Shown: positions 6,361 to 36,277, counted from the stretch's first letter. The stretch: 64,000 bases of DNA from an uncultured Gammaproteobacteria bacterium (GCA_964527115.1 CAZGPK010000003.1:13189-77188); one strand, 5' to 3'. Notes: generated from the sequence alone by a model not told the origin. Numbers and translations are program-made.

Positions 6361-6364
6361 AAAA

Positions 6365-15274: not shown

Positions 15275-15300
15275 AAAGAATTAAAAAAACTTAAACGAGC

Positions 15301-17442: not shown

Positions 17443-17448
17443 GTGGGT

Positions 17449-17976
17449 TTATTTTTTAGAAAGGCGGGAAATAATAAAGCGATAAAGGATAAGGCCAATA
17501 TAGCCAAAAAGAAGGCCCAGGGCAAGACCAGCCAAGATATCAACGGGATAGTGAAGGCCGGTGATGACACGAAAGAAGAGAAAGGGGAAAAGAAGGAAGA
17601 AAAGGAGGAAACGGAGTGGGCGAGAGGGACGGAAAAGAGCCAAGAGAAAGATAAAAAGAAGAGTTAGCTTTAGGGCATGACCAGAGGGGAAAGAGCCACC
17701 TGAATAGTGAGAAGAGAGAAGCGCAGGTGGAGTAGGCAGGGCCTGGTCAAGAAAGGGGCGGCGCCAGGGAGAAAGGGTGGCTTTTAAAAAGTTTTCAAAA
17801 AGCTCAGCTAGAGCTAAAGAAAAGAGAAAAAAGAAAGCTGAGAGGCGACTCTTTTGAAAAAAAAGAAGGAGGAAACCAAGGATTAGAAAAATCCAGGGAA
17901 GATAGTTAAAAAAGATCCAAATAAAAGGGGAAGGGGTGGGATAAACAGTTGGTTGCCAAAAAAGTATTTTATCCAT
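17449..17976 (-). CDS. PAP2-family (polyprenyl-)phosphate phosphatase
   Basis: PAP2 motifs K..SPWRRP, PSGH (SFPSGHAL) and R.....H...D (FRVITGLHYPVD). Confidence 0.65.
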   Translation of the reverse strand: MDKILFWQPTVYPTPSPFIWIFFNYLPWIFLILGFLLLFFQKSRLSAFFFLFSLALAELFENFLKATLSPWRRPFLDQALPTPPALLSSHYSGGSFPSGHALKLTLLFIFLLALFRPSRPLRFLLFFLLFPFLFFRVITGLHYPVDILAGLALGLLFGYIGLILYRFIISRLSKK

Positions 17977-18964: not shown

Positions 18965-18985
18965 GATCTTTATGTATGATAGCCT

Positions 18986-20158
18986 ATGCTTATGGAAAAA
19001 GGGAAGATAAAAGAGAAGAAGGAGAAGCCCAGGGTTTTAGTTTCTTTGACGTATTTTTCCCCGAACGTTTCCGGAGTAACGATATATGCGGATATTCTGG
19101 CCCGGGAATTGGTAAAAAGAGGGTACGAGGTAGGGGTGATTTGCAGTCAAAACAAAAAAGATCTACCCAAACAAGAGACAATTGAAGGGGTAAAAATTTT
19201 TAGGGTAAGGGTCAATTTTGCCTTGGGAAAAGGGGTGTTGATGCTTGGCTTCCCAAAAGAGGCCTGGAAACAGGTAAAAATGGCAGATGTAGTTAATTGT
19301 CAGCTACCCCAGATAGAAAGCTTTGTCTTGGCCTTTTGGGCAAAGATCTTAAAAAAGAAACTAGTAATCACCCATCATTGTGAATTTGGGATAGACGGGC
19401 CATGGACAAATATAGTTACTGGAATTTTAAGCTATCCTTTTCACTTAATTTCTTATCTTTTGGCAGACAGAATTGTCTCCTATACAGAAGACTATGCAAA
19501 GCATTCCATTTTTTTAAGGCATTTTAAGAAAAAGACAGTTTTTGTTTTACCGCCGGTGCTGGTGGAGAAAACAGCCAAAGAGAAAGAGGTAGAGATTGGA
19601 GAAAAGATAGGCAGAGATAAGGATAGCAAGATAATTGGTTACGTAGGACGGGTCGCCTGGGAGAAAGGATTAAATTTTTTACTGGAGGCTTTGGAAAAAG
19701 TAAACCAAAAAATACCGGCAAAATTAGTGCTGGTTGGTCCGTATGAAGAAGTGCTGGGAGATAACTCTTACCAGAAACTTAAACCTCTTTTAGAAAAACA
19801 GAAAGATAAAGTAAAGCTTTTAGGTCCCCTGCCCCACAAAGAAATTGGGGCTTTTTTGAAAAATTGTGATTTGTTGGTTTTACCAAGCACTAATAACTTA
19901 GAAACGTTTGGAATTGTACAAGCTGAGGCAATGATTATGGGAGTACCAGTGGTAGCCAGCAATTTACCGGGAGTACGAGTGCCGCTGCAATTAACGGGAA
20001 TGGGAGAAATAGCTAAAGTTGGTGACAGTAATGATCTGGCAGAGAAAATTGTCAAGGTTTTAAAAACTTCTTACTCTCCACTATTTTCAAAAAAAGCTCG
20101 ATCTATCTTTTGCCTGGAGAGGTTTGTAGAAAATTACGAAGAAATACTAAGATCTTAG
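18986..20158 (+). CDS. GT4-family glycosyltransferase
   Basis: GT-B fold hallmarks: SGVTIYADILARELVKRGYEV at the N-terminus and the EX7E region ETFGIVQAEAMIMGVPVVAS. Confidence 0.8.
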   Translation: MLMEKGKIKEKKEKPRVLVSLTYFSPNVSGVTIYADILARELVKRGYEVGVICSQNKKDLPKQETIEGVKIFRVRVNFALGKGVLMLGFPKEAWKQVKMADVVNCQLPQIESFVLAFWAKILKKKLVITHHCEFGIDGPWTNIVTGILSYPFHLISYLLADRIVSYTEDYAKHSIFLRHFKKKTVFVLPPVLVEKTAKEKEVEIGEKIGRDKDSKIIGYVGRVAWEKGLNFLLEALEKVNQKIPAKLVLVGPYEEVLGDNSYQKLKPLLEKQKDKVKLLGPLPHKEIGAFLKNCDLLVLPSTNNLETFGIVQAEAMIMGVPVVASNLPGVRVPLQLTGMGEIAKVGDSNDLAEKIVKVLKTSYSPLFSKKARSIFCLERFVENYEEILRS

Positions 20159-20162
20159 CTTC

Positions 20163-20188
20163 CTAGTTCGAGTCCAGTGCGGGGAGCC
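20163..20188 (+). repeat. Island repeat copy 0 (tRNA T-arm-like, short variant)
   Basis: ctagttcgagtccagtgcggggagcc starts 5 nt after the GT4 stop codon. It aligns to copies 1 and 2 with a 5-nt gap. Confidence 0.6.
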
Positions 20189-20412
20189 CATAAAACATCC
20201 CGACTTTCTGGTTTACCGAAGACCCAAACTTTGACGAAATCATTAAAACGGACTCATAATACCATTTCTGTCCAAATCGCAATATTTATTCAAATTTTAG
20301 GTTGGGAAAATATATAAGGATGTTCACAGAAGAATACTTAGAGAAACCTAAAGTAAAATTAAGATTCAATGTGATAGTATGTAATGTGTTTAGCTGAAAA
20401 TACCCATAATAT

Positions 20413-20640
20413 ATGGTAAAATGCCTAATGCCAGCGAATTGTCCGGAATGCAAATTTGGTGAGTCGAATTATTGCTTGATAAAAAGAGTTTTTATTGATC
20501 GAAGAGGAGAAACAGTTAAAGAAGAATCTTTTGGAAGTCAGTCTCTCATAGTTTGTCGGCCTCCAGGAACTCGCTCTGGATTTCCATATCGTAATCGGAT
20601 TGCACCCCTTGGGTACTGTGAAAGTGGCGAAAAAAAGTAG
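20413..20640 (+). CDS. Small Cys-rich protein (possible Zn-binding; 75 aa)
   Basis: C4, C10-x2-C13 (CPEC) and C21, plus C48 and C69. Lies 12 nt upstream of the AlaRS-like gene on the same strand. No clear SD, so coding status is uncertain. Confidence 0.35.
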   Translation: MVKCLMPANCPECKFGESNYCLIKRVFIDRRGETVKEESFGSQSLIVCRPPGTRSGFPYRNRIAPLGYCESGEKK

Positions 20641-20652
20641 GAACTTAAGACT

Positions 20653-21837
20653 ATGCCAAGAAACGAGTTAGATCCCTTAACCAAATTTGTTGAAAATAAC
20701 AGCCTATGTCTTAATGGTGAATTTATTTATCCCAGAACAGTATCAAATCCAGACTTCTCCTTCAGGGAACCAATCACTCACGATGGGAGACATTTTAGGT
20801 TTCTCGAATCTCCTATAGATCAAAAAGGGGCAGAGTTACTATCAACACCCGACTTCTTTAATCAATTTTTTACTAAAAACGGTTTTGATGTAATATCACC
20901 AATTCCATTGGTTAATAAAAACGGTACAACCTTATTTATTTGTGCTGGAGTTCAAATTCTTGACTCTGTAATTCATCAAGAAGCTCCAATTCCCCAAAAA
21001 CCGTCATTTGTGGCTCAACCTGTTCTAAGAACTCAGTTTATAGACTATATCGGAGAAGGGACATCGACTAGCTTTATTAACGTATCAACCTGTCAACTAA
21101 ACCTCAGCCGTCAAGAACATTTTCAGCATTTACAAACTTGGGTAGATCTATTTTTACAACTAGGACTTAAGGAGACAGATTTATATTTCAAAATCAAACC
21201 CTATGAACAGCGATGGGGGGACAAAGTTGTAAAAAGCGAAAAAATCTTTATCATTTATGACGGATTAGAAATAGGAGATTCTTCCTATGTTGAGAATCTT
21301 CCTCAAAAAGGCAGACGCAATTTATCCTTAAGTGATATTGGTTTCGGGTTAGAAAGAATTAAATGGATTATGCAGGGAGGGTCATATTTTGACGTATTAG
21401 GCAATGGCAGAGTATCGGATAATATTGACAGAGTATCAGCTGTTTGCACCCACACCCTATCTCTATTAGCTGGTGAAGGTCTAAAACCATCCAACAAGGA
21501 ACAGGGTTATCGATTTAGGTTATTCTCCAAAAAATTAGTTTCAGATATTTTAGGCAACCACTTAGAAACCAATGAACAAGTTAGAAGCTATTATGATTAT
21601 TGGAAAATATGGACCAATTTATCACTTTCGGTAGATCAAGCATTACATGCAGTTACTCAAGAAAATACCAGAAATTTCAATCGAAATTTATTGGACAAAC
21701 TCTGTGAAAAATATCCAGATGTTGGGTTAGATATAAATCTGCCGACTACCGTTATTTTAAAACGATTAAAAGGTACTAGTGTAAAACCAGATTATTTATC
21801 ACAGGTGCTTTATGAATTAAAATACCAGAATGGATAG
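20653..21837 (+). CDS. Stand-alone class IIc aminoacyl-tRNA-synthetase catalytic core, AlaRS-like paralogue (no tRNA-recognition, editing or C-Ala domains)
   Basis: Colinear with the AlaRS N-domain. TTLFICAGVQ matches TLLFTNAGMNQF and QPVLRTQ matches QRCVRAGG. SDIGFGLERIKWIMQGG matches VDTGMGLERIAAVLQ and KPSNKEQGYRFR matches MPSNEGRGYVLRR. Only 394 aa. Confidence 0.75.
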   Translation: MPRNELDPLTKFVENNSLCLNGEFIYPRTVSNPDFSFREPITHDGRHFRFLESPIDQKGAELLSTPDFFNQFFTKNGFDVISPIPLVNKNGTTLFICAGVQILDSVIHQEAPIPQKPSFVAQPVLRTQFIDYIGEGTSTSFINVSTCQLNLSRQEHFQHLQTWVDLFLQLGLKETDLYFKIKPYEQRWGDKVVKSEKIFIIYDGLEIGDSSYVENLPQKGRRNLSLSDIGFGLERIKWIMQGGSYFDVLGNGRVSDNIDRVSAVCTHTLSLLAGEGLKPSNKEQGYRFRLFSKKLVSDILGNHLETNEQVRSYYDYWKIWTNLSLSVDQALHAVTQENTRNFNRNLLDKLCEKYPDVGLDINLPTTVILKRLKGTSVKPDYLSQVLYELKYQNG

Positions 21838-22534
21838 TGATATAAATACATCAATTGGTCAAATATTTCTTGGCGGTGGTGGTGGAGCGGAAGATAGTGT
21901 TTTGCTCGATAAAAGATTTCTTAATGCTCTAAAAAACAAAAAAATTGTATATATTCCAATTGCTTTAACACCAAAGTTAGGTGGTTATGAAAGTTGTTTT
22001 GATTGGATAACCTCCACTTTAACTAACGCATCGGATGATTTTATTGAAATTTCCATGTGGATAGATCTTAATAAAAAAAGCATAACTGATTTGGAAAACT
22101 ATGGCGGAATTTATATCGGAGGTGGTAATACTTACAAACTATTAAATCATGTATATAAGTCTGGATTTAGTGAAGTCCTAATTGAATTTTATAACCGGGG
22201 TGGGCTAATTTATGGTGGAAGTGCCGGAGCAGTTATTCTAGGCAAATCAATTTCAATAGTTTCCGAAGAAAATGACGCGAACTATAAATATGAGAATGGT
22301 CTCAATTTGTTGAATGATAAATCCGTACTATGTCATTTTGATAAAGACATTAAGATTACAGTTGAGCACTTCATAGAGAATAAAAGAGGGGATGTAATCG
22401 CGCTTACTGAGAAGTCAGGACTAATAATATCAAATAATAATTCGGTTGAATCGGTTGGTTTTGAACCAGTAACTATTTATACCCTTTCGGGTAAAGACGA
22501 ACAGTTAAACCCTGGAGAAAAGTCAAAAATTTAG
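21830..22534 (+). CDS. S51-family serine peptidase (peptidase E / cyanophycinase-like)
   Basis: GIYIGGGNTYKLLNHV...GGLIYGGSAGAVILGKSI matches PepE IVIVGGGNTFQLL...ALYIGWSAGANL. VLCHFD matches INPHF. 8-nt overlap with the upstream gene. Confidence 0.8.
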   Translation: MDSDINTSIGQIFLGGGGGAEDSVLLDKRFLNALKNKKIVYIPIALTPKLGGYESCFDWITSTLTNASDDFIEISMWIDLNKKSITDLENYGGIYIGGGNTYKLLNHVYKSGFSEVLIEFYNRGGLIYGGSAGAVILGKSISIVSEENDANYKYENGLNLLNDKSVLCHFDKDIKITVEHFIENKRGDVIALTEKSGLIISNNNSVESVGFEPVTIYTLSGKDEQLNPGEKSKI

Positions 22535-22556
22535 ATGTGGTGTTATAATATTACCC

Positions 22557-23513
22557 ATGGTATCGCTAAAAGAAATCGGCCTTGTTGACACAATTGATTG
22601 TCATACTCATTCTGGTGGTGTAGACCTTTACAATCTATATACTGGTGATTTACCTATGGCTCAGTCTGTTGACGATTTAGTTCTTAAAGCCAGATCTTCA
22701 GGCATTTCTAAAGTAGTAACCTTTCCTTTTCCAACTACCGGCTATTACAATGTTCACGAGCTGGTCACACGTAACGTAAGAATTCCCTCGGGGCAACAAG
22801 ATTTCCCCTATCAAGTTGAAAATATGGCTTTAATAAAAGGTTGTGAGAACTCCGACCTTCCACTCTTACCTTTTATGGCCATCGATCCATCAAATCATAT
22901 TCAGGAACAAGTAGATAGCCTCCGCCAAAATTATAAAAAAAGAAAATTCTATGGTTTAAAATTACATACTCTGGCAACAGGTTCTACTGCTGATAAACTA
23001 ATTGGTTCAGAAATTGTAGAATTTGCTCAGGAAAAAAATATACCAATAATAATTCACTCAGGTTTGGGTGACGAGCATTCACACCCTCAAAACATAGTTA
23101 AATTAGCCAAACAGTCTCCAAACCTGCGTGTTTGTGTGGCTCACCTTGCTTGGTTAGACGAAGATACAATTAAAAATGTGGCTAAAACGAACAACGTGTT
23201 TATTGACACTTGTCCGTTTCTCCAAATATGTAACCGTGTCAGAAAAGGAAGTAAAATGGTATTTTCACCAAATTTAATAGATCCCAACAAACCAGCCGAA
23301 TCTTTGTTTAATTATTATAAATTATTAAAAAATAATTTAATTTGGGGTACAGATGAACCTTGGACAAAATGCATAAGTGCGAGAGGAAATGTCTCCAGTA
23401 ATCATACTTATGGTGACGAAGCCCAGGTTATTTCGGATCTATTTCAAATCTCCCCTCAAGCTGCGCTGGACATTACTTCTCGGAACACTGAAAGATTTAT
23501 CTTTGGTTCATAA
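22557..23513 (+). CDS. Metal-dependent TIM-barrel amidohydrolase (amidohydrolase_2-like)
   Basis: N-terminal HxH (IDCHTHSGG), internal IIIHSG and CVAHLAW His residues, and the C-terminal WGTDEPW Asp motif. Confidence 0.7.
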   Translation: MVSLKEIGLVDTIDCHTHSGGVDLYNLYTGDLPMAQSVDDLVLKARSSGISKVVTFPFPTTGYYNVHELVTRNVRIPSGQQDFPYQVENMALIKGCENSDLPLLPFMAIDPSNHIQEQVDSLRQNYKKRKFYGLKLHTLATGSTADKLIGSEIVEFAQEKNIPIIIHSGLGDEHSHPQNIVKLAKQSPNLRVCVAHLAWLDEDTIKNVAKTNNVFIDTCPFLQICNRVRKGSKMVFSPNLIDPNKPAESLFNYYKLLKNNLIWGTDEPWTKCISARGNVSSNHTYGDEAQVISDLFQISPQAALDITSRNTERFIFGS

Positions 23514-24769
23514 ATCTTAATCTGTCCACTAACTATTTTATTAGTTATTTCACTGTGTTTTATAAGATTTTCTTCAACTATATTACTTATACTCATCCTT
23601 AATTCCTCGTCAATATCTTTCTGATATCCATCTAGTGCGATAGCGGCTTGCCAGGGATCATTCATATCTCTGCCCATTTGTGAAGTTAAGTAAACAGTGC
23701 TTTCAATACCTAACGTTTTAAATATTTCTTCGGCAATAATGTCGCCAATTACAGTAAATATTTTTCCAGTATGATAAACAGGATTTTTTCCGCAAGGTGC
23801 CTCTGAGCTCATGTTCCTTGTAAAAGGGATTATTCCATTCGACCTGTTCCCTCTACCTACCGCTCCTTCGTCTCCGCTCTCAACTGCGCTCCCAATGGCG
23901 GTTAGATATATATCTTGATTATCAAAATTATCACGGGTATTTAATATAATATCTATCGAATATGTCGGAAATTCCCTCTTTAGCATATTGATAAGCAATT
24001 CTTTTAGTTCGTTTAGTTTTTGAATATAGAAACCCTGGTCAGGTGTAAATTCTGCAATAAATGGGATACATAAGGTTAACTCAATATTCTTACTAACTCT
24101 TTTTCCCATTACTTTAATATCAGTCCCAACATATTGATGAGATTTTTTAAATTTAGCGTTGTCTAGTAATCCCTCGGAAATAATCACCATGTTCTCCAAA
24201 TCCGATAAAGGAAAATAGCTTACCGTAGTGGAAGTATCATTCGACCTAAATCCATTGCTATGATGTTTTATATACTTTTCATCAGACACTGAAAAGAATT
24301 GACTTCTTTCATTCTTAGTCGTGCCATCCTTATTGTAAACCACTCCCGGTCCTTGGGAAAAATGTGTATTATCGATAATTTTTAACCATTTATCTGTATC
24401 TAATAACGGAAAGATATTTTTAAAGTGATCTTTTACAACATTATTGACGATTTTCATATAGTCAATTTCTTCATCTAAAAAAATATGAGTAAATCTTCCA
24501 TTTAGCAATATTCTTATTGGAGAAGTCATTTCTCCCTGACCAAAACTTACCTTTGAAGAACCTCCAAGGACGGCAACCTTATCCACCATATGACGTAAAA
24601 TTACCCCATACTTATCAAGACAATAAGTTGAGTATGCCACCGAAATTTTCTCCGCTACCGCATCACATAAATTGTCTGGGTGGCCAATCCCTTTCCTTTC
24701 GACAACTTCATACTCTGTATCATTGATATTTGGCTTACCTGTCTTGAAAACGACAAAATTATTTAACAT
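23456..24769 (-). CDS. Archaeal-type S-adenosylmethionine synthetase (MAT)-like protein
   Basis: VVERKGIGHPDNLCD, SNDTSTTVSYFPLS, GTDIKVMG and YLTAIGSAVESGDEGAVGRGNRSNG...GKNPVYHTGKIF are colinear with M. jannaschii-type MAT motifs. The 3' end overlaps the amidohydrolase gene by 58 nt. Confidence 0.85.
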   Translation of the reverse strand: MLNNFVVFKTGKPNINDTEYEVVERKGIGHPDNLCDAVAEKISVAYSTYCLDKYGVILRHMVDKVAVLGGSSKVSFGQGEMTSPIRILLNGRFTHIFLDEEIDYMKIVNNVVKDHFKNIFPLLDTDKWLKIIDNTHFSQGPGVVYNKDGTTKNERSQFFSVSDEKYIKHHSNGFRSNDTSTTVSYFPLSDLENMVIISEGLLDNAKFKKSHQYVGTDIKVMGKRVSKNIELTLCIPFIAEFTPDQGFYIQKLNELKELLINMLKREFPTYSIDIILNTRDNFDNQDIYLTAIGSAVESGDEGAVGRGNRSNGIIPFTRNMSSEAPCGKNPVYHTGKIFTVIGDIIAEEIFKTLGIESTVYLTSQMGRDMNDPWQAAIALDGYQKDIDEELRMSISNIVEENLIKHSEITNKIVSGQIKIYEPKINLSVFREVMSSAA

Positions 24770-24870
24770 ATGTTTCTGATTATATCTCTACTATCAGCGT
24801 CAGTAAACAAAAACCCATATTATTTTTATAATCTAGGAACCCCCTTCTCATTTTTTGATAAAATTAACTG

Positions 24871-25395
24871 ATGAAAACATATATTCTCCCCGGATACTCT
24901 GACAAAAATAAGTTTTGGGTTGATGAAACCGTCGCTTTTTTAAAACCAGCAATTCCGGCAATTGGTCTTTACTGGAATCATTGGGATGGCAGTTCCACAG
25001 AAGATGGCTGGATTGAAGAAGAAGCTCGAAGAATTATAAATGACTCAAATAATGAGAAAATAAATATTGTCGCTAAATCTGTCGGGGCAATGGTTTGTAT
25101 GGCTGTACTAAAATTAAAGCCAGAATTAGTAAATAAAGTAATTTTGTGTGGAATCCCATTTAAAGACTTTCTTCCAGGTGATGAAAAGAGATATGAGTCT
25201 TTAAAATCTGTTATGCCAAATAATATTCTGCGTATCCAAAATGAGGAAGATAATTATGGATCATTTGAGAAGACGGAATCCTTTGTTCGTTCAATTAATC
25301 CCAACATTAAAGTAGTCTCAAAACCACGAAACGATCACTACTATCCCTACTCGGAAGATTTCAAGAATTTCTTAATCGAGAACAATAATCAATAA
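24871..25395 (+). CDS. Small alpha/beta serine hydrolase (YdeN/RBBP9-like)
   Basis: 174 aa. Nucleophile elbow IVAKSVGAMV, acidic NEEDNYGS and C-terminal NDHYYP His. Divergent from the MAT-like gene across a 101-bp spacer. Confidence 0.6.
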   Translation: MKTYILPGYSDKNKFWVDETVAFLKPAIPAIGLYWNHWDGSSTEDGWIEEEARRIINDSNNEKINIVAKSVGAMVCMAVLKLKPELVNKVILCGIPFKDFLPGDEKRYESLKSVMPNNILRIQNEEDNYGSFEKTESFVRSINPNIKVVSKPRNDHYYPYSEDFKNFLIENNNQ

Positions 25396-25679
25396 AGCTA
25401 ACTTATACAATCGAAGTTTGTAATCTCTTAATTTCTCTTAATCTATTCTCCATCACCTCCATATCCATCGCGTTGTTAAACGCCTTATTAATCCTATCTA
25501 ACGCTACTATAATATCTTTAGAGCTGGGGAGCTCTACAGTGTAGGCGGGATGGGGTAAATTAGATTTGAATCAGATTTAGAAGATACTGCCCTACTCTCT
25601 TTGATAAGTTTATGTTGTTTTTCTTAGGGGAATAATTGATTAAAGATTGTGAGAGCGTGATGTTTGATAGAATTGGTGG

Positions 25680-26333
25680 ATGACTACAGAAGAGCCTCTT
25701 GAGATTCAGAGTGGTGCAATCGAAGAGAGGTTTGCAGCAAACAGGGAATTGCCACATATACGGGTAGATGATTTAAAACCGTTTTGGGTAAGGGGAATTA
25801 TTGATCCAGAAGATCCCTGGAGCATCCAAACAGTTGAAGAAGTACCAGTTAGGCTGATAGCGGCAAGTTCTGTTTTGAGAGATTGGGGCGATATTCAAAG
25901 ACAGAGTGGAGAAAAATTAAAAAGAATAGTTGATGGTCTTCGTTCTGGAGAGCTTGTGCCCGACAGGGAGCCAGTTATTCTTTTTGAATATGGGGGAATT
26001 TACGGCATATATGATGGGCAAAAGCGAATGATGGCGGCAAAGGCGCTGGGGATGGAAACTTGGCCAGCAAGAATACAGAGAACTATGCCAACCACTTTGG
26101 AATTTTCAAGAGATACGGCTGCCTATCACGAGATAATGGGAGGAAGAATGGAAGGTGGGCTGTGGGAAGGGAAGCTTGAAGAGGTTGCGCTTGACGAGCA
26201 AGGAGGCTTAGTTTCTTCTAGATGGTCAATAGAAAGATATGATGGTTTATGGGTTTTTGCAAAGAAAATGGATCTGGCTCGAAGTGTGTATGAAAAACTT
26301 GGAGCAAATGGACAGGCTCCAAGCCTAATATGA
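25680..26333 (+). CDS. ParB/Srx-fold (ParB-like nuclease domain) protein
   Basis: IYDGQKRMMAAKALGMETWPARI matches the ParB N-domain core (DG..R..Aa..lG...ip). 217 aa with no recognisable HTH. Confidence 0.55.
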   Translation: MTTEEPLEIQSGAIEERFAANRELPHIRVDDLKPFWVRGIIDPEDPWSIQTVEEVPVRLIAASSVLRDWGDIQRQSGEKLKRIVDGLRSGELVPDREPVILFEYGGIYGIYDGQKRMMAAKALGMETWPARIQRTMPTTLEFSRDTAAYHEIMGGRMEGGLWEGKLEEVALDEQGGLVSSRWSIERYDGLWVFAKKMDLARSVYEKLGANGQAPSLI

Positions 26334-26364
26334 TCGACAGGGTGGCGTAAAGTTAGCCTCAAAA

Positions 26365-26395
26365 CTAGTTCGAACATAGTCCAATTGAGGGAGCC
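26365..26395 (+). repeat. Island repeat copy 1
   Basis: ctagttcgaacatagtccaattgagggagcc. A 23-nt stretch (aaaactagttcgaacatagtcca) is identical to copy 2. Contains the 8-bp palindrome GTTCGAAC. Confidence 0.85.
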
Positions 26396-26470
26396 AATGA
26401 TATATCTTACCTAAGGATAGGGTTATTATCGTTTGATGCGGTTTGGGACTATAATGAGGTAAAATTAGCT

Positions 26471-26776
26471 ATGGAGAGTGATACGTGGTTAGTTAGTCCA
26501 AAAGAGCTTCGTGTCTCTGGATCTGTTCCCGCCGATGAAAGTGTCGTCAAAGAATACGAAAGATTACCAGCAGACACGATTCCTCCCGTCCAGGTTGTCA
26601 GACATCCCGAAGATGGTTTTCTTTATGTGGTTGATGGACACCATACATTGGAATCAGCTCTTAAGAGAAAAGATGAGCAGATACCAGTACAACGCTTTAC
26701 TGAAAACAGAGAGTTAAACGACCAAGAAGCAGAAAAGAGACGATTAAGATGGATAAAAAGCCAAAAGGGTGATTAA
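26471..26776 (+). CDS. Small ParB/Srx-fold (ParB-like nuclease domain) protein
   Basis: PPVQVVRHPEDGFLYVVDGHHTLESALKRKDEQIPVQRF carries the DGHH(R/T) ParB-like core. 101 aa. Confidence 0.6.
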   Translation: MESDTWLVSPKELRVSGSVPADESVVKEYERLPADTIPPVQVVRHPEDGFLYVVDGHHTLESALKRKDEQIPVQRFTENRELNDQEAEKRRLRWIKSQKGD

Positions 26777-26788
26777 GTGATCTTAAAA

Positions 26789-26820
26789 CTAGTTCGAACA
26801 TAGTCCAGCCGGGGGAGGCC
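26789..26820 (+). repeat. Island repeat copy 2
   Basis: ctagttcgaacatagtccagccgggggaggcc lies 13 nt after the stop codon of ParB-like gene 2. Confidence 0.85.
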
Positions 26821-26914
26821 AGCCAAGTTGGCATTTGATTAAGATTAAACACGTGTACTTGTTATACTTTGAATATGGATGAGTATATAGTAAAGCAATA
26901 AAGATAGAAGAAAA

Positions 26915-28039
26915 ATGAAAAGAATATTTTCCATTATTTTATTCTCGTTGATTGCCTTTTTCGCTTTTAATACTTCTGTTTTAGCCCAGACAGAAATGGT
27001 TGATGAACCACTCAAAGAAGAAACCCTTGAGGCAGTTGTGGAAAAGATATTGGAGGAGAAGCAAATAAAGCCAATGGGTTCAGAGGAGCTCCAACTCTAC
27101 CAGAAATTAGAACTTTTGGTAACAAAGGGTTCTTTAAAAGATAAAAAGATTACTGTTGAGAACGGAGATGTTGCTGTTGCTAATAATTTGAAATACAAAG
27201 TAAATGATAAAGTGATAGTCATTTTTAGTAAAAATTTTGAGGGTGATGATTACTTTTACATTACTGATTACATCAGACGCGATTCTTTGGTTTGGCTGTT
27301 TATTATTTTTGTTGTATCAGCTGTAGTTATTGCCAAATGGCGGGGAATATTGTCACTGGTAGGAATGGGTATTTCTTTTCTGGTTATTTTTTCTTTTATC
27401 CTGCCAAAAATATTAGCAGGTTCAAACCCAGTTGAAATTGCCATTTTGGGTTCGCTGATAATAATTCCAGTTTCATTTTTTCTTTCCCATGGGTTTAACA
27501 AAAAAACAATAGTGGCCATAGCGGGAACACTTATCGCCTTGATAATTACAGGGGTACTGGCAAATGTCTTTGTTGAAGCGGCTAAACTAACAGGCTTTGC
27601 CTCAGAAGAAGCAGGGTTTTTACAGGTCGCCAGACAAGGAACAGTCAACATAAAGGGATTGCTTTTGGCAGGGATTATTATTGGTGTTTTGGGAGTATTA
27701 GACGATATTACAATTTCCCAATCAGCAATAGTATTTCAACTTAAGAAGGCAAACGAAAAATTGAAATTTAACGAACTTTATAAAAGAGCCATGAATATTG
27801 GGCGAGATCATATCTCTTCAATGATCAATACACTTGTCTTAGTTTATACAGGTGCCGCCCTACCGCTTCTTCTTCTTTTCATCGATAACCCTCACCCTTT
27901 TTCAGAAATTGCTAACTATGAAATTATTGCTGATGAGATAGTTAGAACTCTGGTTGGTAGTATTGGACTTATTTTGGCAGTTCCGATTACGACAGTAATT
28001 GCCTCATTAGTAGCGGAACAAAGCAAAACTGGTCACTGA
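26915..28039 (+). CDS. YibE/F-family membrane protein
   Basis: Signal/anchor, a ~100-aa extracytoplasmic domain, then multiple TMs. The GFASEEAGFLQ and DDITISQSA segments are typical of YibE/F. Confidence 0.65.
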   Translation: MKRIFSIILFSLIAFFAFNTSVLAQTEMVDEPLKEETLEAVVEKILEEKQIKPMGSEELQLYQKLELLVTKGSLKDKKITVENGDVAVANNLKYKVNDKVIVIFSKNFEGDDYFYITDYIRRDSLVWLFIIFVVSAVVIAKWRGILSLVGMGISFLVIFSFILPKILAGSNPVEIAILGSLIIIPVSFFLSHGFNKKTIVAIAGTLIALIITGVLANVFVEAAKLTGFASEEAGFLQVARQGTVNIKGLLLAGIIIGVLGVLDDITISQSAIVFQLKKANEKLKFNELYKRAMNIGRDHISSMINTLVLVYTGAALPLLLLFIDNPHPFSEIANYEIIADEIVRTLVGSIGLILAVPITTVIASLVAEQSKTGH

Positions 28040-28322
28040 CAATTCCGGGTGAGCAAAAGTAAGGGAAGGTTTTACTTTTTCTATCTCTTCCCTTGTCTGC
28101 TGAATGAATTTAAAATCTTTAAATGTCTTGAAGATACAAGCTAATTGAGTGGTTATATTAAGGTTATGATTCTCGAGCTCGTGAAACTTTATGATTTTTA
28201 TAAACTTGGGAAATTGATTTTATTTTGTTTCCAGTCTTGGTGCTAATCTATTTCTTTAAGTAGTTTGTAAAGGAAAGTTATACTGTATAGGATACAAGTA
28301 TATTATTTGATTAAATATAACA

Positions 28323-29729
28323 ATGAATTCTGAATACGACCCTGGCAATGAAGAATATCAGCATAAAGAAAAGACTGCTGAAAGATATCAAGTAGTAATT
28401 GTTGGTGGTGGTTTAAGTGGTATTGCTCTAGCAAGACATCTCGAGAGAGCAGGGGTAGACTACTGTATTCTTGACAGCGAGCCTCTTGCAAAATCCCAAA
28501 GTGTTCATTACTTAACAACAAAACAAGCAGCTCAGTCACTTGGTTTACAAAGTGAATACGAGAATCAAGTTCATACGAGAATCCCCATCACTGGTTATAC
28601 CAGATTTGATGCAAGAGAAGATGGTTTGCAGGTTCTCGAAGCCCTGAGCCCTGATAGTAGTCGAAGTGGTGGTTTTGTAACAGTTTCTAAGCAACAAATT
28701 AAAGATAGAGCTGCTTCTGATGGAATATCATTACTTGGAAGTAACCCGGTAATAGCAGCTACACAACGTCCCGATACCGTGGATTGGGAATTAACACTTC
28801 GAAATGGAAAAACTACTTCGGCAGAAATTATAATTGATGCAACCGGAGTAAGAACAAGGGTCGCTAGACTTGCGGGGTTGGTAGACAGAGAAATGTTAGA
28901 TAATCGTAAGGTTAGATATTGTTATGGGGCAGTTCTAGAATATTTAGGACCGGAGGATAGATTATTTTTTGCAGATAGATTTCCAGAACAAGCAGATCTT
29001 GGTATTAGAGAAGGCGCTGGCTGGATTATGCCATTGGGAAACAAAACTGCAGAGGTAGTTGTTGGATGGGAAGATCGCCTAGGGGAAGTTGGCAAATGGC
29101 AAATTGGCCACCCACGTACACTATTGCGACGTTATTGCGATTGGTTTGCTGAAAGAGGAATTATGGTGAATTTCAATCAAAGACTAGAAGTGGTTTCGGG
29201 AATTTTTAGTCAACAGCCACTTGATTACAGAGCTCTTGAACATAACTCAAATTTAATACTTTTTGGAGAGTCTTTAGGGTTGAATCAGCCTCTCAACGGA
29301 TATCTAATAGGTGACATAGATGGATATGCGAGGATCTTATGCGAAGAAATTGTAAATAGATTAAACGGACGAACATGGAGACCTTATGAGGCAATTTACG
29401 CTGATCATACGTTGTTTGGTCCCCAAGTAGTCCTTAGTGAGAGAAAAACGCGGAGTGTTCTTTCTGGTGTTGGCAGATCTGCTGCCACTGCAGATCTTCA
29501 AAAATTATTGGTTGCGTGTCTGTCTCCGGATGGATTATGGAGGGCAATTGATAGCGGGGTACCAATAAAGCAAATACTTATTGGAGTAGTTTCCAATCCG
29601 AAATACTTACCTGTGATCGCAAGAATGGGGGTAGAATATTTATCTTTAATGCTGAGAGATGATCTATATCAGCGTGAAGTATGGTTAAAAATAAAAAAAA
29701 GATTAGCAAACAAAAATAAAGATAAATAA
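28323..29729 (+). CDS. FAD-dependent oxidoreductase (geranylgeranyl-reductase / lycopene-cyclase-like Rossmann protein)
   Basis: Dinucleotide fold YQVVIVGGGLSGIALARHLERAGVDYCILD. Second motif AEIIIDATGVRTRVARLAG. Confidence 0.6.
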   Translation: MNSEYDPGNEEYQHKEKTAERYQVVIVGGGLSGIALARHLERAGVDYCILDSEPLAKSQSVHYLTTKQAAQSLGLQSEYENQVHTRIPITGYTRFDAREDGLQVLEALSPDSSRSGGFVTVSKQQIKDRAASDGISLLGSNPVIAATQRPDTVDWELTLRNGKTTSAEIIIDATGVRTRVARLAGLVDREMLDNRKVRYCYGAVLEYLGPEDRLFFADRFPEQADLGIREGAGWIMPLGNKTAEVVVGWEDRLGEVGKWQIGHPRTLLRRYCDWFAERGIMVNFNQRLEVVSGIFSQQPLDYRALEHNSNLILFGESLGLNQPLNGYLIGDIDGYARILCEEIVNRLNGRTWRPYEAIYADHTLFGPQVVLSERKTRSVLSGVGRSAATADLQKLLVACLSPDGLWRAIDSGVPIKQILIGVVSNPKYLPVIARMGVEYLSLMLRDDLYQREVWLKIKKRLANKNKDK

Positions 29730-29746
29730 GCTAATTTTTTAAAGCA

Positions 29747-29777
29747 GGGGTTCAAGTCTCGTCCGACACGGGGAGTC
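29747..29777 (+). repeat. Island repeat copy 3 (divergent)
   Basis: ggggttcaagtctcgtccgacacggggagtc lies 18 nt after the stop of the FAD protein gene. About 18/32 ungapped matches to copy 2, sharing the GTTC.A...GTCC...CGGGGAG skeleton. Confidence 0.4.
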
Positions 29778-29834
29778 AGTAATATTCTTATTCCAGAGAA
29801 GTGACTAATAATCACCGGTAATTTGAGAGTTAAT

Positions 29835-31421
29835 TTAATTTCTTGGGCTAGCCTGGTACCCCTGTAAAAGAATCTCATTGTGATTGTCTTTTATTAAAAA
29901 AACTTCCTGAAGAGAATGGTCAGATATTTGGTCAGGAGAGATAGATAGATTATCCCCCACTATTACCTGATCTGGGGATATATCATATTTCCAGTCGATA
30001 GGTTTCACTTTGACATTGGCAAAGTTGACGTTGGGATTAAAGGCTCTATCGGTGTAGTATTGGTCACTGTTTTGAGGATTTTCCTCTTGGAAACTGGCTG
30101 GTGGGTATTTTAAATAATAAAGGAGAAGAATGTATGGAACAGTCCGACTATTGTCGATGATAAATTCTTTTTGGGGATTTTCACTTATATAGCTGGACAA
30201 TTGTTTGTATCCATAATTCCAGGCCTTTGCCCTTTGTACTGGAAAAAGGAGGTAGTATGAGCGAAAGAGGAGAAGTAAAGAAAATAGTGAAAGCCCAATC
30301 AGTGCTGGGTATTTTATTGGCTTTTTTATTTTGTATAAAATCCGATCCATCCCAATGGTAATAATTAACGTGTAGGGCAAAAGTAATGGCAGGGCTCTCT
30401 GGGTAGAATAATTGGTATTGGCTAAGGCAGCGGGAACTGGGGCAAGTAGGATGAGACCAAATAGGTAACGATATATTTTATTTTTTCGGTTTGTATAAAG
30501 AGTATATAGACCAGTAATCCAGGGAATAAACATCCACGAATAAAATACAGCTAGCTTGGGAATTGATCTTTGCAAATCATAGTCCTGATTATTGAATAAA
30601 TTATTCGGGGAAAAATAGGACAGATATTGGCTAATAAATGAGGTGCTAAGACTATCACTTTTTACCCAAAACGCAGGCTTGGTCAACATCCATAGATTGG
30701 GAAGCTGAATGAGCAAGGCAATGACTATTGGCCAGGTCAAAGTTTTTTGGGGACGGCGTTTGGTGTGAAAAAGAACGAGGATTAGAGCGATCAGAAGTGG
30801 AGCCAGATAGCGTTGGGTATGAGCGGCATGGGTGGAAAGAGAGAGGAGGGGCAAGGATAGGTATGGCTTTCTGTATAGCAGAATTCCAAAAGATATTAGG
30901 GCAAAGGCAAAAGTAGTTTCGTATCCCAAGCGGGCATTAAAAACTGTCCAGGGACTAATTAAAAATATAAATACTCCGATAAGTTTTGAGCTTTTTGACT
31001 TTAGCAGATTCTCTTTGGTGAAAAAATAATATATTGCCAGGGCAACTGCTAACATTGAGACTGAGGATAAGAGTCTCAATGAAAAGTCGTTTAGACCAAG
31101 AAGGCGAATGATGATAGCTTGCAGATAGACATATAGACCGGGGGTATAGGAGCCGAAAAATTTAAAGTTTAATGGTAATAGTTGGCCATAATGGTCCCTT
31201 AATGTTTGGGAAATTGAGTAGGCATCATAAGCGGCAACTGCCTCATCAACATAAACTGCTGGAGGAATAGAGTCGAGGCGGTAAAGATAAAGAAAGAGAG
31301 CAAACGTTAGAACCAATAATAGGCAGATTTTACTTTTTAATAAGCGAAGCAAGACCATAGATGGAAGATAAAAATATAAAAGGGTAAAGGCTATAATTGT
31401 TGGAAATATTTTCTGGTCCAA
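29835..31421 (-). CDS. GT-C-type (GT39/GT83-like) polytopic glycosyltransferase
   Basis: The first extracytoplasmic loop has YVDEAVAAYDAYSI (the DE motif of PMT/ArnT-like enzymes). About 12 TM. The start is probably M22 (31358), and the N-terminus overlaps the upstream ORF. Confidence 0.6.
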   Translation of the reverse strand: MDQKIFPTIIAFTLLYFYLPSMVLLRLLKSKICLLLVLTFALFLYLYRLDSIPPAVYVDEAVAAYDAYSISQTLRDHYGQLLPLNFKFFGSYTPGLYVYLQAIIIRLLGLNDFSLRLLSSVSMLAVALAIYYFFTKENLLKSKSSKLIGVFIFLISPWTVFNARLGYETTFAFALISFGILLYRKPYLSLPLLSLSTHAAHTQRYLAPLLIALILVLFHTKRRPQKTLTWPIVIALLIQLPNLWMLTKPAFWVKSDSLSTSFISQYLSYFSPNNLFNNQDYDLQRSIPKLAVFYSWMFIPWITGLYTLYTNRKNKIYRYLFGLILLAPVPAALANTNYSTQRALPLLLPYTLIITIGMDRILYKIKKPIKYPALIGLSLFSLLLLFRSYYLLFPVQRAKAWNYGYKQLSSYISENPQKEFIIDNSRTVPYILLLYYLKYPPASFQEENPQNSDQYYTDRAFNPNVNFANVKVKPIDWKYDISPDQVIVGDNLSISPDQISDHSLQEVFLIKDNHNEILLQGYQASPRN

Positions 31422-31812
31422 AAAGGAGTGAAAACACTATTGGAATCAATAAAGTAATGGCAAGAAAAGCATGGTGTTTATCTTCAATAATTTTAAATAA
31501 ACCTAAAATAACAAGCGGGGTGATAAAAAAGGGAAGAGACTTCAAATCAATGACATTGAAAAACTTGCTCTGCAGTTTAAAAAAAATGCGGCTTTCAGGC
31601 CGTTCTTCGATGATATGGGCCAAGCGGTAATATCTGGGGGGGTAATCAATCATTCTTTGTCTCATTTCAACAAGTTCAATTTCTGATTGATATGTCAATG
31701 AATGATAGTTTGATCGGAAAATTTGGCGGACACTTAGAAATATTACTAAAAACAATAAAAAAGAGAGAAAAGATTTCTTTTTAAACATTGTGTATTGGTA
31801 GAATATTAGCAT
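31330..31812 (-). CDS. Hypothetical 4-TM membrane protein
   Basis: A 160-aa ORF with hydrophobic segments. Co-oriented with, and overlapping, the GT-C gene start. No recognisable motif. Confidence 0.35.
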   Translation of the reverse strand: MLIFYQYTMFKKKSFLSFLLFLVIFLSVRQIFRSNYHSLTYQSEIELVEMRQRMIDYPPRYYRLAHIIEERPESRIFFKLQSKFFNVIDLKSLPFFITPLVILGLFKIIEDKHHAFLAITLLIPIVFSLLFGPENISNNYSLYPFIFLSSIYGLASLIKK

Positions 31813-31816
31813 ATGA

Positions 31817-31847
31817 CTAGCTCGAACATATTTCAGTCGAGAGAGCT
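31817..31847 (+). repeat. Island repeat copy 4
   Basis: ctagctcgaacatatttcagtcgagagagct has 24/31 matches to copy 1. It sits directly upstream of the minus-strand gene start at 31812. Confidence 0.65.
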
Positions 31848-32064
31848 GGGGAAACTTAGTATTTATCTAGCCTGGGCTTTTACTTTTTCTTTGGGATTTT
31901 GGCTTGGCTGATAGAAGATACTACCCTACCCTTTTTTGTTTGACTTATGCTGTTTCTCTTGGAGAAGCAAAGTGAAGGGGTACCGGTCAAGAAAGATAAA
32001 TTGATTGGCCGTCTACAGCACTTAATTTTTAATATATACTGATAAATTGAAGGAGGTGATGAAT

Positions 32065-32469
32065 ATGAAAAAAATTATAACGTTGCTTTTTGTTCTGGCT
32101 GGTATTTTAGGTTTCACTTTTGTAAAAGGCACAATTGCACAAGCTGACATGTTGGTGTCTCCTGGTGTATGGGTGAAAGGTACAAGCGCAGTTGAGGAAA
32201 TTACCATCCATCTCGCTTATCCCCTTTCTGAAGCGACAGAAGGTGTTGACCTAAATATTTTAGACAAAAACTATGAACTATTTGAACCAATAGAGGAAGG
32301 GAGCTTTACAATGAGTGCAGACTCCAGGGGAGATCTGGTTATTAAGTTTGTCCCAGAGATTGGCAAATATACTATTGGTGATTCTTATATTGTAAGAGTG
32401 ACTATAGGTGAAAAGTCATGGGATTTTACGGTGACAATTAAGGAAGCAGGGGTTGTTGATTCTGAGTAG
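32065..32469 (+). CDS. Small secreted beta-rich protein
   Basis: AGGAGG at 32051-32056, 8 nt before the ATG at 32065. Signal peptide MKKIITLLFVLAGILGFTFVKGTIAQA. A strong terminator follows. Confidence 0.55.
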   Translation: MKKIITLLFVLAGILGFTFVKGTIAQADMLVSPGVWVKGTSAVEEITIHLAYPLSEATEGVDLNILDKNYELFEPIEEGSFTMSADSRGDLVIKFVPEIGKYTIGDSYIVRVTIGEKSWDFTVTIKEAGVVDSE

Positions 32470-32482
32470 TAGTCAGGGAACA

Positions 32483-32525
32483 AAAAATGCAGGGATGGGC
32501 CAGAAGGCTCCCTGCATTTTTTTTG
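32483..32525. terminator. Bidirectional intrinsic terminator
   Basis: The stem aaaaatgcaggga / tccctgcattttt has a 13-nt loop and is flanked by A- and T-runs. It lies between convergent genes. Confidence 0.8.
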
Positions 32526-32540
32526 TGGACTGTTTGTTTT

Positions 32541-33581
32541 TTAGCGGTAGATATTAAAACTTGAGACTATTTCGTTTATGTTTGCTGACATGTCTTGGTA
32601 TCGATCCCCTTCGCTCCCACTTAGGGGGTTATCAAGAGACTGGGTAAAGTAAAAAACTTTATCAGCGTCTCTTTCCAATTCTTTTCCATAAAAGATGGTA
32701 TTTTCTTCACTTTTTAAGGTTTCCCATTCTGACAAGCTTACTTTGTGGATAGTAAAAAGTTGATAGCTTATGCCGGCAGTTTGAAAATTAAAAATTGCCG
32801 TTTTCGGGGATAGCTCAACTTTGTAAAAATTAGACCATGAACTGGGGATTTTTAGACTAAAACCGAGCTGGCTGTTGAGGTAGTTATTTTCGTTTGGATT
32901 TGGGCGGTTGGTAAATTTAAAAGTTGAGAGTATCTGGTTTTTTATTTGCTCAAAACCTTGGTTCCCCGGGTCTGAAATTGAAAAGGTGATGTGAATAAAA
33001 GCTGAGTCTGATCCTTTTTCTAAGATAATGTGCTGGAAGGTCCCCAAACCTTCTTCTGTAAAAGTTAAGCCCTGGTAATTGTTGAGGGAAATACTTTTGG
33101 GATCTTCTGTGATCTCCACCATCCCCTGGTCTTCTATTCCCTTAATCAAGGAATTGGTGAAATTAGTTAAAGTGGTTGAGATTTCTCTGGGTTCAAAGCT
33201 TAGGGAAATTCCATCGTATAGCTCGGTACCCTCTTTCTGGGTTGGTCCCCACTTTTGCAAGATAGCGGTACTGGCTTCAGCTAAATGGAAAGTAAAGTCG
33301 GTTGGGTACTTAATTTCATAAGTTGAAGAGCTATGCGTTTTCCAGTCGGCGCTGGGGTCAACAGTGGGAAGCAAAGAAGGAGAGCTTGATGGAGGAGAGA
33401 GAGTGGGAATGGGAACTGAAGTTTCCTTTGTCTGAGTCTTTTTAAGGTTTAAATTCTGGTAAAGCAGAAAAGAAGTTACTCCCAGAAGAAGAAGAGGTAG
33501 AACTGCCAGGGTAATGGGCAAGAGTGGTTTTGATTTCTTTTTGAGGATAACTGGAGCTGTCTTAGCAGAAGAGATTGTCAC
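32541..33581 (-). CDS. Membrane-anchored extracytoplasmic protein, unknown function
   Basis: N-terminal TM (LLPITLAVLPLLLLGVTSFLLY), then an S/P-rich linker, then a soluble domain. Confidence 0.45.
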   Translation of the reverse strand: MTISSAKTAPVILKKKSKPLLPITLAVLPLLLLGVTSFLLYQNLNLKKTQTKETSVPIPTLSPPSSSPSLLPTVDPSADWKTHSSSTYEIKYPTDFTFHLAEASTAILQKWGPTQKEGTELYDGISLSFEPREISTTLTNFTNSLIKGIEDQGMVEITEDPKSISLNNYQGLTFTEEGLGTFQHIILEKGSDSAFIHITFSISDPGNQGFEQIKNQILSTFKFTNRPNPNENNYLNSQLGFSLKIPSSWSNFYKVELSPKTAIFNFQTAGISYQLFTIHKVSLSEWETLKSEENTIFYGKELERDADKVFYFTQSLDNPLSGSEGDRYQDMSANINEIVSSFNIYR

Positions 33582-33677
33582 AGGAAATTTATCGGATTGA
33601 TTTTTAATTTAATAGTTTTTAAGTTTAGCACAAAGGTTTGAGGCGTGATTTATCAGAACAAAACTTAGTTTTGGTTT

Positions 33678-34967: not shown

Positions 34968-35127
34968 GGGTTTTGGGACTGGCTTGATTCTTTTCTTAAT
35001 TATAGCCTTAATTTTGGCAAGAGACTTTTCTTGTTTGATATTTTTGATATTCTTTTTTGCTTGGTAGAAATAATTGGTAGAAATAAGATGAGTTGGCTGA
35101 GCTGGTTGGAAATACTTCTTTTGGAAA

Positions 35128-36222: not shown

Positions 36223-36277
36223 AATTTAGTCTTGCGGGAAAGGATGGGGAAAAAATGGATTGGGATTGGTCAAGCTA

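Follow-up and report, generated by a model that had tools for sequence, protein, structure and literature searches.

The window analysed here is a stretch of 64,000 nucleotides listed under an uncultured Gammaproteobacteria bacterium (GCA_964527115.1, CAZGPK010000003.1:13189-77188), and the subject of this text is a low-GC accessory island in it, which begins directly after a glycosyltransferase gene ending at 20158 and occupies a slot between cell-envelope genes. An earlier note on this DNA had placed the island at 20160-31850. Proteins of the window are found with identical sequence and in identical gene order on contigs from several groundwater metagenomes of the Rifle aquifer (PRJNA268031 and later re-assemblies). 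Envelope genes are abundant around the island, with DUF2298, PAP2, LPG_synthase_TM and GT4 matches on its left and UppS, polyprenyl synthase and two PMT_2-type GT-C genes on its right (Pfam).

Gene content of the island and its flanks

The gene bordering the island on the left encodes a GT4 glycosyltransferase (18986-20158, + strand; Pfam Glycos_transf_1 and Glyco_transf_4). The left 4.4-5 kb of the island is taken up by a cassette of five genes. These are a 75-aa Cys-rich open reading frame (ORF; 20413-20640, + strand) with no match in Pfam, PHROG or PADLOC, a 394-aa protein resembling a stand-alone catalytic fragment of alanyl-tRNA synthetase (AlaRS; 20653-21837, + strand; sequence, AlphaFold2 model and Foldseek), a Peptidase_S51 protein of the PepE/cyanophycinase kind (21830-22534, + strand; Pfam 81 bits, with weak NCBIfam matches to PepE and cyanophycinase), an Amidohydro_2 metal-dependent hydrolase (22557-23513, + strand; Pfam 37.7 bits), and a methionine adenosyltransferase (MAT) of the PF01941 type, 437 aa long and transcribed divergently from the opposite strand (23456-24769, - strand; Pfam 340 bits). 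Together with a small alpha/beta hydrolase (24871-25395, + strand; weak Pfam Abhydrolase matches), the cassette forms what will be named hereafter module A (20413-25395).

To the right of module A lie a 217-aa ORF (25680-26333, + strand), a 101-aa ORF (26471-26776, + strand), a YibE/F membrane protein (26915-28039, + strand; Pfam 259 bits) and an FAD flavoprotein that distantly resembles geranylgeranyl reductases (28323-29729, + strand; Pfam and NCBIfam; 57 bits against a cut-off of 159). The earlier note had listed ParB-like proteins, YibE/F, an FAD protein, an orphan aminoacyl-tRNA synthetase cluster and an extra GT-C. A ParB-like nuclease domain is supported for the 101-aa ORF (PHROG E=1.9e-7; Pfam ParBc_2 E=1.6e-4, below the cut-off) and only weakly for the 217-aa ORF, which has faint ParB/Srx-like similarity (PHROG ParB-like E=0.004; SbnI E=0.16); YibE/F and the FAD protein are confirmed by Pfam, and the AlaRS-like protein by comparison of sequence and structure.

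The extra GT-C is a 528-aa membrane glycosyltransferase of the PMT_2-like type (29835-31421, - strand), called in public annotations as a 507-aa protein at 29835-31358. It has no direct Pfam match and was assigned by transitive homology: an all-against-all HMMER search gave 6332 representative homologues, and 32 of the 52 sampled match PMT_2, so that the earlier assignment stands. Residues D59, E60 and D76 in the first loop are conserved. A single-sequence AlphaFold model of this ORF was unusable (pLDDT 41), and the Pfam profile of the homologues was used instead. Further rightward come a membrane ORF of about 151-160 aa with no family assigned (31330-31812, - strand), two ORFs of 140 and 346 aa within 32047-36222, UppS (33678-34967, - strand; Pfam), which carries an additional C-terminal extension of roughly 190 aa, and a polyprenyl synthase (35128-36222, + strand; Pfam). 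The undecaprenyl-diphosphate-synthase domain of UppS covers residues 24-242 of 429 aa, and the extension has no family match. The right syntenic flank is a PMT_2 GT-C glycosyltransferase gene (g36278; 36278-37996, - strand; Pfam).

Between 17.4 and 36.3 kb, no recombinase or transposase was found with Pfam, PHROGs and NCBIfam and no tRNA with ARAGORN, in agreement with what had been said of the island before. Elsewhere in the window, a tRNA cluster at 62528-62904 holds two tRNA-Met (CAT) and one tRNA-Ile with anticodon TAT, the latter being uncommon in bacteria. A suggested lack of Shine-Dalgarno sequences in the island relative to core genes did not hold up, such motifs preceding 3 of 10 island genes, none of the six genes at 29.8-36.2 kb and 9 of 39 core genes. 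They are rare throughout the window (12 of 55 genes), and TATAAT-like hexamers lie within about 5-25 nt upstream of many start codons (e.g. 20403-20412, 22541-22556, 24770-24790 and 26450-26470); short-leader or leaderless transcripts may be common in the host organism.

Composition and the slot in related genomes

The GC content falls abruptly after the GT4 stop codon, to 0.369 at 20160-31850 against 0.442 at 1-20159 and 0.438 at 33600-64000 (Mann-Whitney p=8e-7 for 1-kb windows inside versus outside the island), and the lowest-GC 11.7-kb segment of the 64 kb begins at 20201. A two-breakpoint likelihood fit to raw GC favours a wider segment, 18.9-36.5 kb (0.379 versus 0.443); raw GC is therefore mildly depressed past both borders proposed earlier. 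At third codon positions (GC3) the separation is complete. That is, the ten genes at 20413-29729 average 0.289 (0.243-0.335) and the 38 core genes 0.431 (0.363-0.524), the two ranges being disjoint (p=1.5e-6), and the six genes at 29835-36222 are intermediate with a mean of 0.384. The tetranucleotide signature, normalised for base composition, strand-symmetrised and computed in 4-kb windows, correlates with that of the core at 0.88-0.955 in every core window, at 0.57-0.77 across 19-32 kb, and above 0.90 again by 31-35 kb.

The most telling compositional measure is the third-position G/C skew relative to the + strand (GC3 skew). In core genes it is +0.50 +/- 0.12, and it is alike for genes on the + strand (+0.48) and on the - strand (+0.51), representing a mutational imprint of the chromosome strand and not of the coding strand. 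Complete Microgenomates genomes have been reported to show a similar disparity between their strands (PMC7143001). The mean drops to +0.04 in the genes at 20413-29729, with values of -0.23 and -0.24 for the AlaRS-like and amidohydrolase genes and -0.11 for the MAT gene, and it recovers to +0.34 in the genes at 29835-36222. The lack of the host strand bias in the genes at 20.4-29.7 kb points to a brief residence in this chromosome, and the intermediate skew over the next 6.4 kb to a longer exposure to the host bias. The GT-C gene at 29835-31421 itself has GC3 0.38 and GC3 skew 0.33, the region 32047-36222 is likewise intermediate (GC3 0.34-0.45, GC3 skew 0.32-0.47), and the GT4 gene is slightly atypical (GC3 0.38, GC3 skew 0.32). 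A codon-usage log-odds score of island versus core was dropped as a test because, owing to the host strand bias, it merely split + from - strand genes; GC3, tetranucleotides and the explicit GC3 skew were used instead. Across the whole window (1-64000) the skew of A over T at third positions is also mostly positive, and the strand disparity is strong enough to confound ordinary codon-usage comparison. The discontinuity is thus large, and significant on four independent measures (GC, GC3, tetranucleotides and GC3 skew).

For comparison with relatives, one genome per species was scanned with the 713-aa DUF2298 protein of the window (15301-17442), which gave 80 loci. Most of these carry the label Candidatus Shapirobacteria, Woesebacteria or Patescibacteria, with identities of 45-55%. 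On account of these labels and identities, the window is assigned to a Shapirobacteria-like member of the Microgenomates, within the candidate phyla radiation (CPR), the species of which is absent from the one-genome-per-species collection. Maps made with tblastn show a shared order in the relatives, g39671-g37993-g36278 (GT-C or associated genes), an optional GT4 gene, PAP2, DUF2298 and g13361. Both anchors are present in 60 loci, of which 31 have the GT4 gene and 29 do not, and the g36278 homologue abuts GT4 or DUF2298 in these 60 relatives. In the 31 loci, it is separated from GT4 by -8 to 2695 bp, and by less than 160 bp in 11 of them; in the 29 loci without GT4, the g36278 homologue lies 582-6742 bp from DUF2298. 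A GT4 homologue (31-55% identity) adjoins DUF2298 in 42 relatives, and this left flank is vertically inherited.

The slot between the DUF2298 side and g36278 therefore measures 0.6-6.7 kb in 60 related species as against 18.8 kb in the window. None of the genes at 20413-36222 was found in the slot of any of the 80 loci (E<=0.01), with the sole exception of a match to the GT-C ORF over 97 residues (E=6e-4). Instead, the slot of the relatives carries extra GT-C-like proteins, GT4, methyltransferases dependent on S-adenosylmethionine (SAM), an NAD-dependent epimerase and LPG synthase. Because the cargo differs from relative to relative, the slot is a family-wide hypervariable envelope-glycosylation locus between DUF2298/PAP2(/GT4) and the PMT_2-type GT-C pair. 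In a separate observation, the whole block 7691-40612 (g7691 to g39671) is inverted with respect to at least 40 related species, with ends near 7.70 and 40.61 kb; in the relatives, the g39671 homologue comes immediately after the genes at 2938-7702.

By synteny the surplus DNA extends from 20159 to 36277 and is wider than the compositional island, the clearly foreign composition of which ends near 29.8-32 kb. The right border, described before as soft, is really so, because synteny and composition end at different positions. The region consists of a clearly foreign core from 20160 to about 29800, an extension of intermediate composition to 31850, over which the tetranucleotide signature has not yet fully recovered, and surplus host-like DNA to 36277.

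The recurrent cassette, the remaining cargo and the direct repeats

The AlaRS-like family is small, with 69 proteins that come nearly all from CPR/Microgenomates-type contigs. At the loci of homologues with 87, 81, 79, 69, 69 and 49% identity, the arrangement AlaRS-like, S51, Amidohydro_2 and reverse-strand MAT is kept in order and orientation. Counting the window, the cassette was found in seven contexts, the surroundings of which are unrelated. In L096 its neighbours are CYTH and histidine kinase genes; in L097/L098 it begins 4 bp after the gene of a 566-aa large serine recombinase, with a resolvase fragment upstream; in L099 it lies next to a SocA antitoxin and LOG/DHH genes; in L108 it is accompanied by IF-2B and an rve-type transposase, the MAT and amidohydrolase genes being truncated; in L109 it lies near a polyprenyl synthase; and in L122, a Shapirobacteria metagenome-assembled genome (MAG) with 30% GC, it lies among SerRS, RelA and NrdD genes and has native GC. 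The 75-aa Cys-rich ORF holds the same position in L096, L108 and L109 (71-77% identical), and the alpha/beta hydrolase recurs only in L096, as a truncated copy.

DNA homology to the window (73-85%) is limited to 20392/20670-24784/25064 and has abrupt edges. In L099 and L109 the cassette proteins are 63-82% identical to those of the window, and the adjacent core genes only 46-60% (L099) and 48% (L109). Moreover, the L096 cassette lies between two copies of a 46-nt direct repeat (93% identity, spacing 4809 bp). The right-hand copy forms the 3' end of the histidine kinase gene, which is what an element integrating at the end of a gene leaves behind. The L097 recombinase has Resolvase, Recombinase and Zn_ribbon_recom domains and lies in a low-GC segment with a second resolvase fragment. 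A reading in which the L097 element splits an mgsA gene was withdrawn, because the two MgsA_C ORFs cover the same profile positions and are separate copies. At 1-5100 of L097 the cassette adjoins a type I restriction-modification system (HsdS, HsdR) and a YgjP-like gene, surroundings that resemble those of a defence or mobile region.

The PF01941 type of MAT is the ordinary one in Patescibacteria (1238 matches of about 419 aa, at 53-57% identity), and the cassette MAT forms a distinct 437-aa subgroup with 74-89% identity within it. The AlaRS-like protein aligns to residues 47-264 and 334-373 of an archaeal AlaRS (2ztg; E=1.7e-9) at the sequence level. Its AlphaFold2 model, built with 52 homologues, has a pLDDT of 92.8, and the best Foldseek matches of the model are AlaRS catalytic fragments (E=2e-17). 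The motif-2 Arg (QPxxR) and the DxGFGxxR motif are invariant in the 52 homologues, and the protein probably still forms an aminoacyl adenylate. The cassette could activate an amino acid and pass it on either to the Cys-rich protein or to an acceptor of adenosyl or SAM origin, the two hydrolases processing the product. It is a probable amino-acid-activating, SAM-linked small-molecule cassette.

Among the closest known counterparts is AcmF of ascamycin biosynthesis, a truncated AlaRS-like enzyme that has lost most of the residues for ATP and alanine activation and uses Ala-tRNA (PMC12945691). Both are stand-alone fragments of the AlaRS N-terminal part (aminoacylation and tRNA recognition) encoded in an accessory gene cluster, that of AcmF acting on an adenosine-derived molecule. 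The protein of the window, however, keeps the motif-2 Arg and DxGFGLER invariantly, which sets it apart from AcmF as described; it is also closest to archaeal AlaRS, and its partners (S51, amidohydrolase and MAT) are different. Literature searches found no description of the cassette or of the island.

The non-cassette genes, i.e. the two ParB-like ORFs, YibE/F, the flavoprotein and the GT-C, are patchily distributed. The flavoprotein family has 15 proteins, the best non-self match being 60% identical, and the genes beside its homologues are unrelated, both in another MAG (L100) and in a Gottesmanbacteria genome (L101). Two variants from another Rifle sample and an NCBI MAG (L113 and L115) are 100% identical to the window over 24859-26947, diverge by about 12% from 26948 through YibE/F, and lose similarity at 28179; past YibE/F (L113 3313-5277), a GIY-YIG nuclease, a histidine phosphatase and a Cys-rich secreted ORF replace the flavoprotein and GT-C genes. 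This succession of identity, divergence and gene replacement suggests that diverged genomes living side by side are exchanging parts of the island. YibE/F is an allelic hot spot between co-occurring strains, the L093 variant having 41 single-nucleotide polymorphisms (SNPs) at 27.5-28.0 kb. The scaffold_713 variant carries the island and is 99.7-100% identical to the window except for SNP-dense patches at 27.5-28.0, 30.0-30.5 and 38.0-38.5 kb (41, 20 and 24 differences per 500 bp), some of which adjoin scaffold gaps. No variant lacking the island was found among the public Rifle assemblies.

The 64 kb contain exactly four copies of a family of 36-nt direct repeats; they lie on the + strand and only within the island, both of its borders as first proposed included. 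Copy 1 (20160-20195), a short form without ACATA, begins 2 nt past the GT4 stop codon; copy 2 (26358-26393), a long form, lies 25 nt past the stop codon of the 217-aa ORF; copy 3 (26782-26817), also a long form, follows the 101-aa ParB-like ORF and is itself followed by a hairpin at 26818-26832; and copy 4 (31810-31845), the most diverged with 72% identity to the reference copy, marks the right border. The spacings are 6.2, 0.4 and 5.0 kb, and a pattern matching three of the copies is expected 0.00 times in shuffled sequences. A block of about 35 nt that includes GAGTTCGAGTCCAATGCGGGGAG is shared with L099, where it lies on the outer side of the cassette in inverted orientation, its core matching at 21 of 21 positions (one of them an R). 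The motif was not found in the 80 loci of the relatives.

A metagenome-wide scan with the 21-mer returned the source population and four unrelated sequences (GC 43-64%, no tRNA), which, by our estimate, is close to the number that chance would give in a database of that size. One unrelated metagenome contig of 52% GC (L104, 2560-2660) has the border 21-mer followed by an inverted partner (GTTCGAGTCC...GGACTCGAAC), probably by coincidence. The border motif had been considered as a tRNA fragment (GTTCGAGTCC...GGGGAGCCCA resembling a T-arm and acceptor end), a reading set aside since ARAGORN and Rfam gave no match even at E<=10; only 3 of 5 pairs form in the T-stem. RNA structure was rejected as well, there being no folding signal in the repeats (z-scores -0.3 to +0.7). 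The 36-nt repeat is most simply read as a candidate, if unproven, recombination scar or site marking module junctions, the alternative being a regulatory element of 3' ends.

Origin of the island and its significance

In our judgement, the region is likely to be a composite, horizontally acquired accessory island that lacks a recombinase of its own and sits in a species-variable envelope-glycosylation slot. The deviant composition and the absence of the block from the slot of the relatives support the accessory-island reading put forward earlier; either of the outcomes that the earlier note had named as refuting it, a smooth compositional profile or a block conserved in synteny among relatives, was looked for and not seen. 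The evidence supports a mosaic of separately acquired pieces over one element. Among the features by which genomic islands are recognised, deviant composition, absence from the corresponding site of relatives and a patchy cargo that recurs in other contexts were all found here; an integrase, recombinase or transposase in or beside the island and a tRNA/tmRNA insertion site were not. The 36-nt family at 20160 and 31810, with two copies between and a fourth copy of only 72% identity, is a candidate for flanking direct repeats. The likeness to classical genomic islands lies in composition, absence from relatives, mosaic cargo and possibly the repeats at the borders, and the difference in the missing integrase, tRNA site and mobility genes, the G/C disparity between the strands of the CPR host giving an additional marker of foreignness.

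Under this reading, the cassette would have entered by site-specific or transpositional recombination, carried out by a recombinase that has since become unlinked, as may be conjectured from its position elsewhere beside a serine recombinase or an rve transposase or between 46-nt repeats. The two ParB-like ORFs, YibE/F, the flavoprotein and the GT-C would have been added piecemeal, and homologous recombination may now be spreading and reshuffling the pieces in the aquifer population. As for the stretch 29.8-36.2 kb, its genes are either older residents or host genes that were relocated.

Several observations weigh against this account. With an identity of only about 50% in DUF2298 even to the closest sequenced relatives, synteny is being compared over long times, and the insertion is not datable by it. 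No recombinase, transposase, tRNA gene or recognisable element end was found at the island in the window. The UppS and polyprenyl synthase in the surplus DNA are housekeeping functions, for which relocation therefore fits better than import. The 217-aa ORF is host-like (GC 0.443, GC3 skew 0.56) though inside the island. The higher identity of the cassette proteins could partly reflect slower-evolving enzymes, and the L122 cassette, located among core genes and with native composition, leaves room for vertical inheritance in part of the lineage. Next to the cassettes of L096, L097, L108, L109 and L122, no copy of the repeat was found. Finally, copy 3 had been a candidate for the exact L113 breakpoint and was rejected, the first mismatch (26948) lying 130 nt downstream of the copy and not within it.

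The best-surviving alternative is a single degraded integrative element, the whole of 20160-31850 having been inserted in one site-specific event, the outer repeats being its attL and attR and the integrase having been deleted later. It would account for copies of the repeat family that lie exactly at the two compositional borders and nowhere outside the block in 64 kb, and it fits with the cassette directly downstream of a large serine recombinase in L097/L098 and with ParB-like genes, which are common in mobile elements. We nevertheless regard it as unlikely: the GC3 skew is heterogeneous (near -0.1 in the cassette, 0.56 in the 217-aa ORF and 0.33 in the GT-C), only the 4.4-5 kb cassette travels together elsewhere, the flavoprotein homologues have unrelated neighbours, and a close variant replaces the genes after YibE/F. 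In addition, two further repeat copies lie within the block, copy 4 is only 72% identical, and no phage, conjugation or relaxase genes were found. There are no structural, packaging or lysis genes of a prophage, the only PHROG matches being ParB-like, and scans of IMG/VR yielded nothing related beyond weak matches at 34% identity; no relaxase, coupling protein, type IV secretion or integrase domains of a conjugative or mobilisable element were found with Pfam and PHROG. Likewise, an integron array is not apparent (no tyrosine recombinase, and repeats without folding signal), nor is a defence island, with no PADLOC match for the ten proteins scanned, and a plasmid-like origin found no support either. 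The large-serine-recombinase integrative elements resemble the present case in that the L097/L098 cassette lies 4 bp after the 566-aa recombinase gene; unlike them, the copy in the window has no recombinase, and the MgsA_C ORFs of L097 are not halves of a split gene.

Less probable still, and in our view quite improbable, is a native, vertically inherited variable surface-glycan locus, the low GC of which would be due not to import but to selection that is relaxed or diversifying, as at O-antigen and capsule loci. The GT-C, GT4, methyltransferase and epimerase genes in the slot do vary from relative to relative, a glycan theme is suited by the GT-C, UppS and polyprenyl synthase genes, and raw GC is mildly depressed over 18.9-36.5 kb with the syntenic GT4 included. 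Yet the most deviant genes (AlaRS-like, S51, amidohydrolase and MAT) are not glycan genes, and they recur as a unit at unrelated loci with 73-85% DNA identity. They also lack the host strand imprint, which acts on silent sites regardless of function, and the tetranucleotide signature deviates even after base-composition normalisation. The locus does share with O-antigen and capsule loci a conserved slot with species-specific sets of glycosyltransferases, methyltransferases and epimerases, low GC, the lack of an integrase and exchange probably by homologous recombination in the flanks. As in variable envelope-glycosylation loci, conserved flanks enclose species-specific glycan genes, the window contributing its GT-C at 29835-31421. 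The cargo as a whole, however, is not dominated by glycan genes. About half of it is non-glycan: only the GT-C, arguably the flavoprotein, UppS and polyprenyl synthase fit the theme, the cassette, the ParB-like ORFs and YibE/F fall outside it, and the GT-C enzymes have no assigned substrate.

A metagenomic assembly chimera joining the DNA of two organisms is extremely unlikely, for even though several assemblies break near 19.6-19.7 kb and 26.23 kb and scaffold_713 has N gaps, the left junction is bridged identically by at least nine contigs from different samples and assemblers, and independent assemblies span 14484-31837, 18173-31168, 26116-31330 and 31586-36436 at 99.9-100% identity. The ends at which three independent assemblies stop their contigs (19595-19729, inside GT4, and 26228-26230, inside the 217-aa ORF) suggest branch points, i.e. 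heterogeneity, in the population. An apparent break in scaffold_713 at 26229-26413 proved to be a run of Ns.

We return to the composite accessory island, for which a more far-reaching version can be considered, namely that the 36-nt repeat is a recombination site used in trans by which recombinase-less modules are stacked, and that the cassette constitutes an undescribed pathway built on an AlaRS paralogue. We hold this conjunction to be speculative and give it a small chance. If true, it would mean modular, satellite-like island building at a single chromosomal slot in CPR bacteria, and the cassette, with a catalytically intact AlaRS fragment and a dedicated MAT, could either aminoacylate the small Cys-rich protein or serve to produce or recover an aminoacylated compound of adenosyl or SAM origin.

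Current concepts are left unchanged by the composite island, which would add one well-characterised instance of an ordinary and well-documented kind. Its interest lies in the host, since CPR/Patescibacteria have tiny genomes in which gene gain at a single locus is poorly documented, and the island would provide a clean, multiply supported case of recent import into a defined hypervariable envelope slot, to which it adds envelope and isoprenoid-related genes. The extreme silent-site strand bias of the host can be used as a built-in clock of gene residence. Moreover, the analysis singles out a small, recurrent, recombinase-associated cassette around a stand-alone AlaRS catalytic fragment, the chemistry of which is testable.

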